A DNA stretch of 64,000 nucleotides from positions 159,315 to 223,314 of the forward strand of contig BJGH01000003.1 of the NCBI GenBank assembly GCA_014190355.1, in the 5' to 3' direction. A program made the position numbers. Source of the stretch: Alphaproteobacteria bacterium (GTDB lineage Bacteria > Pseudomonadota > Alphaproteobacteria > Rickettsiales > UBA1997). Numbering within the stretch: the first letter of the stretch is position 1; every line of letters begins with the position of its first letter. Below, one piece after another: positions 1 through 3,000 of this stretch.

Positions 1-3000
1 CAAGATTAAACAATACTACTGCGGTTTTTTTATTAAATTTTTTCATGAATAATTTTTATAATAGATTGATAAAATAAACTAATTAAAAACACTGAAATTA
101 ATAACAAAATAATTACTGCACTGATTGTTAGATTATAAGTTTCGGCGATTTTAAAAGCAGTTGAAGAACAAATTAAAGCAATTGTTAAACTTAAAAACAA
201 CATTTGCGATGGTGATTTACTGAATAATCTGGCATTTGTTGCAGGTAAGATCAATAAAGCGGTGATCAAAAAAACTCCTACCACCTGAACTGCCATGGCT
301 ATTGTAAAAATTAATAAAGTTGTGAACAAAATATTGATTAAGTTAATTTTTACTTTTTCAATTTTAGCAAGATCATAATCAATATTAACCAGCAATATTT
401 TTTGATAAAAAGCAAAACTAAAAACCACGATAATTAATGCTAAAATACTTAAAATTGCTACATCAAATTTTGAAACCGTCATTAAATCACCAATAATGTA
501 ACTTGTGAAACTAAAATTAGGTAAGAAAATATCAGCAAAAACAAAGGCAAGCGCTATTGAAAAATATGATAAAATCATGATCATAGCATCACGCGAGAAA
601 ATTTTACAATGCATAATTAATGAACTCAGTAAAGCAAAAATAATGCCAAAACCAAAAAAACTTAAACTTTGATTAATTTCAAATAAAGCCGAAAGAACAA
701 CACCCAGAAGCATCGAATGAGAAACTGCATCGCCAAAATATGCGATTTTTTTCCACAACACAAAAACTCCCAATAATCCACAAATTATCGCAATTAGAAG
801 CACAGTTAATAAAGGTTTAAGAAAAATTATGGTCATAGTTGCGTTATTTTTTTTTATTTTTAATCTTAATAAAACAATGTTCGAAAGACATTTTAAACAA
901 ATTTTCAGCTTAAAAGTTTAATTTTAATGAACCATATTCAAGCTCAACATTTTTTCAAAACTAGATACAGCCCTTTAGATTTTAAAATTAAATTTATTTA
1001 GTTTGATTTTGATTATATAAGTAAAATTTTTAAGGAATTTTTTCAGAATTTATCAATTTTAAATATTAATAAGGTTAACTAAATTCATTAATTATGTCCA
1101 GCAAAAATTCAAATGTTCTAGCTTCATTCATGAAGAAGCAAATCTCAGAAAAATCATCTAAAACTAACTTTATCAGTCAATCAATTTTTGGCGATAATAA
1201 TAACAACCAAAATAATAAAGAAGAAACCAAAGAGGATAGCAAGGAAGATAAGGTTAGCGAAGAAGAAGAAAAGGAAAAAAAAGAAGTTGAGCAAGCTAAA
1301 TTAGCATCAAAAACCAAAGCTGCCCAAATGGATCAAACAGAAATGTTAAAAAAAATAGTAATCCAAAATGCCATAAAATTTATTTTAATTATTGGAGCGA
1401 TGTTTGGATTAGCTTATGCAATTATAGAAGTTGGTCCAAAAATGATTGTCTCTTTAAATGGCGTATTTCTCAAAGCTTTTTTTGGGTTTGGTTCGGTTAG
1501 GTAAGAAAAGTTAATCCATTTACGCTTTTGGATGCGCAAAACTAAAAGATTCGGACCTAGCATTCGCAACGAAGTGGAATGAGAAAATTGGTCAGAAAAG
1601 AGTTCAAAGGGGTCAAACCCCTTTTCAATTGGGAGGTTCAATTGCAGGCTTTACATATCGGCTTCAAGTGGGGGGGTTGGTTGAAGGCTTTGTTATTAAA
1701 TCCCCCAAGATCCTCTTCCACCAGAAGTAACTTCTCTTGATGTTGTTGTTGTTTTAGTTGTTTTTGATGTAAAAAGCTTCTTATTAGCATCACTAATTTT
1801 TGTATTTGCTTGAGTAAGATTTTGTAGTCTTTGATTATTAGCTTCTTGTTTTTTTTCTGGTGAAACATTTATAAATCCAGAATTATCCAAACTCTCTTTA
1901 CTAACTTTATTGCCCGCTCTTAAACCATCAATTTGATTAATTGCAGTTGTAAGAGCACTTTTTTCTGCAATGAGTTCATCATGTGCTTGAGGCGTTGACG
2001 ATTGATAATGCTCTTGATCTTTTCTAAGAAGAGCCAACATATTATCTTTAAAGTCATTAAAAGCCTTGTTCTCTTGTGAGCCATCTTCATTTACTTTAGT
2101 CAAAAATTCTTTTCCCATTCCTGCATCACCCTTTCCTGTTTGTTTTTCCCCCATATTAGCAAAAAAAGATTCTCTAAGGTGACTATCAAAACCTTTTTTA
2201 AAAGATTCCATTTCAGTTGTATCTGATTTAAGCATTTCTCTTAAATTCTCAGGAAGTGCTAATTTATCCATTAACTTAACTCTAAATTCATCAACTTCTT
2301 TACTAATAGCTTCTTTGGGTTTCACGCCATCTAATACTCCACTAGATTGAACTTGTTCAAAAACATTTTGAAGATTTGTTTGCGAATTTGGGGTATGACC
2401 CTTTTTGACCATTTGACTATCTGGGGTATGACCCTCATTGACCATTTGACTAGGCATCGGTTGGATGCGATTGGAATTGCCAGTTGAGGGAGGGTCTCTA
2501 TCTTCTATCACTTTAGTTAACCCATACGCAAATATGCCCATTCCTGCTACTGCCATCACAGTTGAACCAACGACACCCATTCCTGCCATAGCTGGAAAAA
2601 TTATTGGCCCCAAAGCCAACATTAACATTAAAGCTCCAACTCCCATCATAATCATAGATTGCGTGGAAATGCCCCTTCTTAAGGGTTTTTTTGCTTGAGG
2701 CTCCTCTGCTTGAGGAGGATATGGTGAATTTTGGTTTGGGTAATGATTTTGAGCGCCACCTTGCTTTGTCTGTGATGGTGCAAGTTGACTCGCTACATCA
2801 ATTAATCTGTTTGCTGATTCAGGATTATTTTCAGCCCATCTAATGGCTTTATCGGCAACATTTGCAAGCTTATTAGGATCATCTCTATCATTACCCACAA
2901 TATTTCCTCCAATTATTTTTTTAAAAAAATTTTTTTAAATTTTTGTTAAAAAATATTGAAGTCTCAAGGATAATCTTAATTTTAGGATCTTTAAAAATTT

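Follow-up and report, generated by a model that had tools for sequence, protein, structure and literature searches.

Tir of enteropathogenic and enterohaemorrhagic Escherichia coli is a translocated hairpin receptor that an extracellular bacterium places in the host plasma membrane by type III secretion, and its partner is intimin. Chlamydial Inc proteins are recognized by a hairpin in which two helices, each of 15-32 residues, are joined by a short loop rich in Pro, Gly, Asn, Ser and Thr, and the paper that defined them also shows that such a bilobed domain does not guarantee translocation (PMC3048545). In the order Rickettsiales, of which the rvh type IV secretion system is characteristic (PMC9352585), known rvh VirB/D4 effectors include AnkA and Ats-1 of Anaplasma (PMC2824752). 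Comparative work could not assign rvh effectors in early-branching and ectosymbiotic members of the order (PMC9352585), and the host dependence of Rickettsiales is for this reason still argued mainly from metabolism. Here we describe five orphan open reading frames (ORFs), A to E, in a stretch of 64,000 nucleotides (positions 159,315 to 223,314 of contig BJGH01000003.1, assembly GCA_014190355.1; hereafter the window) from the Rickettsiales metagenome-assembled genome (MAG) LBMAG18. Each encodes a protein with a single hydrophobic hairpin-like block, and at least three of them (B, E and D) change unusually fast between near-identical strains, as host-facing proteins usually do.

The five had been grouped on architecture by an earlier, sequence-only reading, and all were found where that reading placed them (Table 1). 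An ORF passed our filter if it had at least 100 aa and one Kyte-Doolittle block only, of 28-62 aa (mean of 1.6 or more in a 19-residue window), whose start was 30 aa or more from the N-terminus; five of the 51 ORFs in the window did so, and these were exactly A to E. As had been claimed, none carries a hydrophobic N-terminal segment resembling a Sec signal, and both Pro and Gly occur within every block. The proposed block length of 35-60 aa applies to B (51 aa) and D (59 aa), whereas at the hydropathy threshold A, C and E reach only 28-33 aa, and in A and C the second lobe is weaker; the polar tail said to follow the block does not exist in A, where the hydrophobic region extends to the C-terminus. 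Judged by hydropathy and inspection, B, C and D appear to fit the Inc hallmark well, and A and E (33 aa in the latter) fit it loosely. What the five share is indeed architecture and not sequence, as the best hit of an all-against-all BLASTP search with composition correction off had an E value of 0.006 and less than 24 bits; every cross-comparison being weak, the possibility that they are paralogues was ruled out.

All five look like native coding sequence, because their in-frame codon-usage log-odds (0.22-0.31 per codon) match those of 30 annotated window genes (0.26 +/- 0.08), and the scores of both shifted frames are strongly negative. Searches of Pfam, NCBIfam, PHROG and PADLOC returned no significant family match for any of them, the only PADLOC match being a weak one between C and PD-T4-4_A (E=4.7e-4, 17.5 bits). 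The genes are set among housekeeping genes, outside prophages and defence islands, and there are no defence partner genes near them in the window; a phage or defence origin was rejected on the lack of PHROG or PADLOC membership and of such partners. With no homologues beyond one genus-level clade, the five are genuine, lineage-restricted orphan genes.

The rapid change is best seen when each gene is compared with its own neighbours at related loci (given here by L numbers). B is only 55% identical to its ortholog in L008, while the adjacent metC is 99% identical, with a synonymous rate (dS) of 0.147, a nonsynonymous rate (dN) of 0.003 and a dN/dS of 0.02. Between these two alleles, dN/dS outside the hairpin is 1.9 by Nei-Gojobori counting, 2.2 by LWL85 and 1.2 by GY94 maximum likelihood (ML); in the N-terminus it rises to 4.9 (Nei-Gojobori) and 9.2 (ML), and in the hairpin it is 0.33-0.40. 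With L007 as the comparison, Nei-Gojobori counting gives 1.5 outside the hairpin, 2.1 in the N-terminus and 0.34 in the hairpin, ML gives 0.97, 1.9 and 0.30 for these three parts, and the L007 and L008 alleles show the same pattern when compared with each other. The neighbouring genes panB, asmA and rodZ-like have dN/dS values of 0.07-0.15. The C-terminal domain of B has a dN of 0.27-0.30 (0.30 vs L008) against 0.003 in metC, and dN in B is also above the divergence seen in the intergenic spacer between metC and B (80% identity). Nonsynonymous exceeded synonymous change in Nei-Gojobori counts, both outside the hairpin (Fisher p=6e-4) and in the N-terminus (p=0.004). At the 45% identity that separates B from its L006 counterpart the ORF is intact, 109 columns are invariant and dN/dS is 0.13-0.7 by method, from which we conclude that the protein is functional. 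These estimates argue firmly for positive selection on the N-terminus of B, and we claim it firmly for that part only because the C-terminal domain taken alone has an ML estimate of 0.8-0.9; elsewhere in B our claim is a dN/dS of about 1, or 10-50 times the local background.

Variation in B is also distributed in segments. Relative to strain L010, the kilobases on either side of the gene are about 100% identical and its promoter is 81% identical; the first ~65 codons cannot be aligned, as unrelated sequence takes their place in the L010 allele, identity is 100% over most of the hairpin, drops to 58-78% in the linker and the first half of the C-terminal domain, and is 97-100% in the remainder. 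Inside these nearly identical flanks, the L010 allele has a middle segment like that of the L008 allele, which indicates recombinational mosaicism, and both alleles recur in independent assemblies.

Rapid change was also seen in E and D. Over a 2.6-kb locus shared with L012, 13 of 15 differences fall within E, 10 of them nonsynonymous (p=1e-5), with none in the 550 bp of intergenic DNA alongside, and dN/dS in E is about 0.9. The E ortholog in L037-L039 is 50% identical and carries large indels, next to genes for an old yellow enzyme (OYE)-type flavin oxidoreductase and purB that are 95% and 97% identical, respectively. The parts of E that are conserved are the hairpin with its basic flank, the motifs PKPILK and IDALDLAS, and the last ~50 residues (LAGDLAGIAxDLRGxxRSNAGEARPRxxRVxFG), in which RSNAGEARPR(DKK/R)RV may resemble the VirB/D4 transport signal, with its spaced Arg residues, that is found in substrates from Agrobacterium. 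For D, five of seven differences from a 5.7-kb locus (L031) cluster in the tail of the protein, and they comprise five nonsynonymous and no synonymous changes (p=3.5e-4); in L035 the gene is identical. In both E and D, single-nucleotide polymorphisms (SNPs) are denser than in the intergenic DNA next to them. If diversifying selection is taken to be marked by a dN/dS of at least 1 or by a local excess of nonsynonymous change over the flanks, B, E and D all bear such a mark, and the comparisons indicate that these three genes evolve at an accelerated and, in part, apparently adaptive rate.

About 40 aa predicted as two helices open the B protein, followed by a Gln/Pro-rich segment, the motif KKPL[KR][KR]GISTQS and a nearly invariant 47-aa block rich in Gly, Ala and Met with kinks at a Gly-Pro and a Pro, and the peptide quoted in the earlier reading corresponds to residues 82-127. 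A variable Gln/Gly-rich linker comes next, and within it the 33-bp duplication that had been noticed was recovered at 2389-2452 (1.9 copies, 93% matches) and is absent from other alleles. The protein ends with a helical domain of ~200 aa, modelled at a predicted local distance difference test (pLDDT) score of ~80-94 and broken by a low-confidence loop at residues 250-259, and a basic tail rich in Ala, Pro, Ser and Thr. The GGAGGA ribosome-binding site (RBS) ascribed to B was confirmed 6 nt ahead of the GTG start. Neither a Foldseek search with the B model nor a sequence-profile search against the PDB gave a match below E=0.09. Five homologues could be detected, all in related MAGs and 45-76% identical; in a profile search of 1.84 billion representative proteins the family comprised 4 representative clusters, none outside that clade, and in a genome scan the profile hit one GTDB species representative only. 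The metC gene lies immediately upstream of B wherever a contig covers that side (the window genome, L008 and L010), and the downstream side varies. Directly after the B ortholog of L007 (3067..4479) there is a 470-aa orphan with a polar N-terminus, a 42-aa Gly/Ala/Pro hydrophobic block, tandem Gln/Gly repeats (GPDQQGKDQK) and a Pro/Ala-rich tail (PAPA...RGAGR) ending in Arg, for which no homology to B was detected.

A is the weakest member of the five. Its codon-usage score is 0.217, its RBS is weak, the turn is charged (EVGPK) and the second lobe is weak; the protein is 100% identical in L010 and L011, showing no variation, and no copy of it is found beside the B orthologs of L006-L009. C is a singleton ORFan among 5.8 billion proteins, and its position is absent in relatives, where nuoG is directly followed by gshB. 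In relatives (L032 5333-5592) the order is nuoG and then gshB-GNAT-rplM-rpsI, genes that in LBMAG18 lie beyond the window start. Since nuoG and gshB are contiguous in relatives, C and the repeat array next to it (window 9489-10328) sit at a rearrangement breakpoint. A metagenome scan for the C and D loci of relatives, anchored on the YceI-like neighbour, returned only L013, which covers neither.

Table 1. Position of the five ORFs, and of the elements within and between them, in the 64,000-nucleotide window.
Feature	Position	Strand	Remarks
ORF A	1094..1504	+	136 aa, GDX36160.1; polar Glu/Lys/Asn-rich N-terminus
A hydrophobic region, residues 88-134	1355..1495	+	Reaches the C-terminus, no polar tail
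Palindrome AAAGGGGTCAAACCCCTTT	1606..1624	.	Between convergent A and B; looks like a bidirectional terminator
ORF B	1696..2898	-	400 aa, GDX36161.1; GTG start; directly downstream of metC, same strand
B residues 190-385, predicted all-helical domain	1744..2331	-	Mean pLDDT of 10-residue blocks 67-94, mostly >80
B 33-bp in-frame tandem duplication	2389..2452	-	QMVNEGHTPDS / QMVKKGHTPNS, in variable low-complexity linker
B residues 81-127, hydrophobic block	2518..2658	-	Gly/Ala/Met-rich, kinks at G97-P98 and P102; dN/dS 0.2-0.4
B residues 1-65, hypervariable N-terminal region	2704..2898	-	Two predicted helices; dN/dS 1.9-9
GGAGGA RBS of B	2905..2910	-	6 nt upstream of GTG
ORF C	10328..11137	-	269 aa, GDX36169.1; Lys-rich flanks on both sides; RBS AGGGAG
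C lobes	10892..11038	-	Lobe 1 residues 34-54, turn GVPINPQ, Gly-rich lobe 2 ~60-82
ORF D	21586..22242	-	GDX36179.1; 218 aa from TTG start or 208 aa from ATG at 22212
D hydrophobic block, residues 91-149	21796..21972	-	59 aa, 2-3 lobes, basic flanks on both sides
ORF E	51211..52011	-	266 aa, GDX36204.1; starts 10 nt past the stop of the OYE-type flavin oxidoreductase gene
E Arg-rich C-terminal tail, residues ~208-258	51238..51390	-	Conserved
E hydrophobic block, residues 76-108	51688..51786	-	33 aa, two prolines

LBMAG18, whose window proteins are numbered from GDX36160 onward (locus tags LBMAG18_06710 and following) on a contig of 228,680 bp, comes from Lake Biwa and belongs to the GTDB family UBA1997, which is Gamibacteraceae, and to the genus UBA2645. 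The bin, Alphaproteobacteria_epi.bin2 (SAMD00166063, the 18th BioSample in Table S3 of the source paper; the table row was matched by inference, with support from contig size, GC content and gene content), has 1.63 Mb in 24 contigs, 29.9% GC and 95.6% completeness, and was recovered from the 0.22-5 um plankton fraction. That the window might derive from LD12/Pelagibacterales was rejected, since the 18th BioSample is this Rickettsiales bin and the region carries TrbC, ankyrin and LRR genes. UBA1997 cells seen by CARD-FISH (fluorescence in situ hybridization with catalysed deposition of a reporter) are small rods living as epibionts on freshwater cryptophytes (bioRxiv 10.1101/2023.01.31.526412, a preprint), and Gamibacteraceae have been described from their genomes as "possibly ectosymbiotic" (PMC9352585). 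UBA2645 is a founding member of Ca. Gamibacteraceae, a family sister to the ectosymbiont Deianiraea in which FhaBC adhesins are present, rich biosynthesis is retained and the ATP/ADP translocase is absent. A TrbC/VirB2 gene on the same contig, ~8 kb beyond the window start, together with the rvh system reported for the order, points to type IV secretion in this organism, and no type III system was found in the data seen. The window also encodes a leucine-rich repeat (LRR) gene and an ankyrin-repeat gene, the latter with a faint Pfam match only. The epibiotic or ectosymbiotic lineage, the TrbC/VirB2 gene and the ankyrin and LRR genes make host association a reasonable premise, which a vacuole is not. 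The ankyrin-like gene (28339-28872) encodes a 177-aa protein with a faint PF12796 match, whose C-terminal 25 residues are, in a tie, the most basic of the window (net +6); it may be another candidate type IV substrate.

Other features of the window deserve mention. The sequence-only reading placed a repeat-family hairpin between A and B, and the palindrome found there at 1606-1624 does belong to such a family, AAAGGGGTC[A/T]GACCCCTTT, with eight sites in the window (1606-1624, 9743-9761, 9883-9901, 10023-10041, 10102-10120, 15620-15638, 15760-15778 and 20901-20919) against 0.03 expected by chance. All are confined to intergenic DNA. At 9741-10128 the palindromes are arrayed in tandem, in units of 140 bp and 79 bp, and two more copies are 140 bp apart at 15620 and 15760; because the flanks differ among loci, the repeated core is the hairpin itself, resembling repetitive extragenic palindromic (REP) or Rickettsia palindromic (RPE) elements or a terminator. 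Of the four intergenic regions with the palindrome, three lie 3' of hairpin-protein genes (A/B, C and D), and L007 has a related palindrome 3' of its B ortholog. When the ENA assembly of the same sample (L003 2950-3256) is aligned to the NCBI contig at window ~15750-15870, across the array that contains the 15620 and 15760 palindromes, the two main alignments break at 15812/15813 and L003 has ~100 extra bases, which looks like a difference in repeat copy number, the arrays being either unstable or hard to assemble. The LRR gene falls into two ORFs (54854-55855 and 55903-56754) whose frames differ, its L037 ortholog being a single ORF of 731 aa; the protein is 42-44% identical to that ortholog beside a 97%-identical purB, and the split is either a frameshift (a pseudogene) or an assembly error in what appears to be a fast-evolving effector-type gene. 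A type IV pilin-like gene at ~5004-5896, with the prepilin N-terminus FSLIELSIVILIIG, is likewise broken over three frames and called as fragments of 84 and 90 aa; it is intact in L032 (822..1718, 298 aa), to which the window copy is 82-90% identical.

As to what the five proteins do, we suggest that they may be rapidly diversifying host-interface proteins, with translocated effectors that insert into membranes as the form we favour, and we hold this as a tentative first choice. By gene, B and E would be strong candidates, D a moderate one, and C and A weak ones. The conserved hairpin would serve as a module for membrane insertion or oligomerization, and the soluble parts that flank it would be fast-diversifying interaction surfaces, represented in B by the N-terminal helices, the low-complexity linker and the 200-aa helical domain. 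What we infer is the export itself, its machinery and its destination: the most likely route would be export by the rvh type IV system, of which all five are candidate substrates, after which the proteins would insert into one of the algal partner's membranes, probably its plasma membrane and not a vacuole, in a logic nearer to that of Tir or Inc. We read the proteins as host-facing because a conserved hairpin is joined to diversifying flanks, because the genes are orphans whose bacterium is host-attached and has a type IV system, and because their divergence is like that of the LRR gene, whose product has an effector-type domain and comparably low identity; the second orphan of the same build in L007, and the S4TE thresholds of C-terminal basicity and charge that B and C reach, were counted as context for it. 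The whole scenario taken literally, of an extracellular Rickettsiales that is attached to an alga and injects fast-evolving hairpin proteins through rvh into the plasma membrane of its host, would be unlikely.

A number of observations weigh against this proposal. The S4TE rule asks of the C-terminal 25 aa at least three His, Arg or Lys and a net charge of at least +2 (PMC3814349): B and C have both, D and E have the basic residues only, and A has neither, with A, D and E thus below the charge threshold, and about a quarter of the window ORFs would also pass; C-terminal charge in the five is only marginally above that of other ORFs (p=0.035) and does not discriminate. Summed lobe hydrophobicity on the Hessa scale ranges from -3.5 to +2.4 across the hairpins, a range that overlaps that of true inner-membrane proteins of the window and so does not separate secreted from resident proteins, and the Lys/Arg-rich flanks of C and D would equally fit ordinary insertion into the bacterial inner membrane. 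The architecture is not significantly enriched, the five in 51 ORFs comparing with six in 164 ORFs of unrelated loci (Fisher p=0.09, with a crude control); the only words common to the upstream regions of the five genes are AT-rich; and A and C supply no comparative evidence. With an ML dN/dS below 1 in the C-terminal domain of B, much of the signal could reflect relaxed constraint and recombination and not positive selection, and AT-biased mutation can inflate counting estimates of dN/dS. Finally, what is known of lifestyle comes from a preprint and from genome-based inference at the family level, and not from the LBMAG18 strain itself.

The main rival to translocation, and a serious one that we regard as possible though somewhat doubtful, is that the five belong to the bacterium's own envelope, as inner-membrane hairpins inserted by the signal recognition particle (SRP) and YidC, with their soluble domains in the cytoplasm or periplasm. 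Such proteins could be parts of attachment or secretion-associated complexes, or membrane-acting anti-phage or immunity factors, and their fast evolution could stem from pressure by phages or competitors or from weakly constrained disordered segments. All the features that speak for membrane insertion would suit the bacterial inner membrane just as well, and the hydrophobicity of the hairpins and the agreement of the flanks of C and D with the positive-inside rule would be expected of such proteins; the near-invariant hairpin of B suggests specific helix packing in a fixed complex, the weak match of C to PD-T4-4_A would suit a defence role, and bilobed proteins may remain with the bacteria that make them (PMC3048545). 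A dN/dS of 1 or more over a folded 200-aa domain and the mosaic replacement of alleles would, however, be unusual for cytoplasmic or periplasmic housekeeping components, the adjacent LRR gene has diverged in a similar way, and the housekeeping neighbourhood, with neither prophage nor defence island, partner genes nor defence-family membership, also speaks against this rival. It could also be that these are young or decaying, lineage-specific ORFs of low complexity and little or no function that evolve near neutrality, their hydrophobic stretch a by-product of AT-rich codons (Phe, Ile, Leu). For A and C this is plausible, given that C is a singleton whose locus is missing in relatives and that A has a weak RBS and no comparative support, and the dN/dS of ~0.9 in E (vs L012) and of ~1 in B outside the hairpin (ML), as well as other decaying genes in the window (the split LRR and the frameshifted pilin-like gene), would agree with it. 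As an account of the group we consider it improbable, since B keeps an intact ORF, its invariant columns and a confident helical model down to 45% identity, the hairpins in B and in E are selectively conserved, as is the tail of E, the higher SNP density of E and D than of adjacent intergenic DNA does not fit simple neutrality, the B block is rich in Gly, Ala and Met and not in Phe, Ile and Leu, and codon usage is native in all five.

The sequence-only reading had instead proposed Inc-like effectors in the membrane of a vacuole that contains the bacterium. The order of parts in B (N-terminus, hairpin, helical domain of ~200 aa) is presumably comparable to that of IncA, which we counted in favour of a vacuole, the architecture does agree with the Inc hairpin, and the genes evolve as host-interaction genes do; these points lend the interpretation partial support. 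The share of five in 51 ORFs likewise falls within the 4-10% reported for chlamydial proteomes (PMC3048545). In its specific, vacuolar form this proposal nevertheless found no support and seems very improbable to us, as the family is epibiotic or ectosymbiotic and the MAG comes from small-fraction plankton, broad biosynthesis is kept and the ATP/ADP translocase is lacking, secretion would be by rvh type IV with no type III system in the data seen, and no homology to Inc proteins emerged from Pfam, NCBIfam, the PDB profile search or Foldseek with the B model.

Under the reading we favour, that of host-interface proteins, the five ORFs are concrete candidates, being orphans with a conserved hairpin that evolve as fast as the nearby LRR gene, and B and E are the best among them. 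If the injection scenario above is true, the ectosymbiotic stage in the evolution of Rickettsiales would have its first candidate effectors in these ORFs, and the decoration of host membranes with hairpins would pre-date, and may have prepared, the vacuolar move seen in Anaplasmataceae. If the proteins stay with the bacterium, they would still be unusual envelope proteins whose allelic diversity is kept by recombination.

Compared with ordinary helical hairpins of the inner membrane, the five are similar in hydrophobicity and, for C and D, in their positive-inside flanks, but such hairpins are usually under purifying selection and have a wider phylogenetic distribution. With chlamydial Inc proteins they share one hydrophobic domain of ~40-60 aa made of two helices and a short Pro/Gly/Asn/Ser/Thr turn, without a Sec signal (PMC3048545), as well as lineage specificity, mostly helical soluble parts and a frequency of several percent of ORFs; they differ from them in the lack of any similarity in sequence or fold, in belonging to Rickettsiales, with a type IV system and no known inclusion, and not to Chlamydiae, with type III secretion through an N-terminal signal, and in the placing of the hairpin behind a disordered region, 34-91 aa into the protein. 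The rvh effectors come from the same order and secretion family, and basic, hydrophilic C-terminal tails (B and C), the conserved Arg-rich tail of E, orphan status, rapid evolution and the presence of ankyrin and LRR proteins in the same window are all in keeping with them; known rickettsial effectors are mostly soluble, however, show no homology to the five, and set a standard of C-terminal charge that D, E and A do not reach. Tir is set apart by type III secretion, a ~100-aa extracellular loop between its helices, a dedicated intimin and a lack of homology. It is close in concept, in that an attached extracellular bacterium delivers a two-helix protein into the surface membrane of its host, an arrangement that would suit an epibiont.

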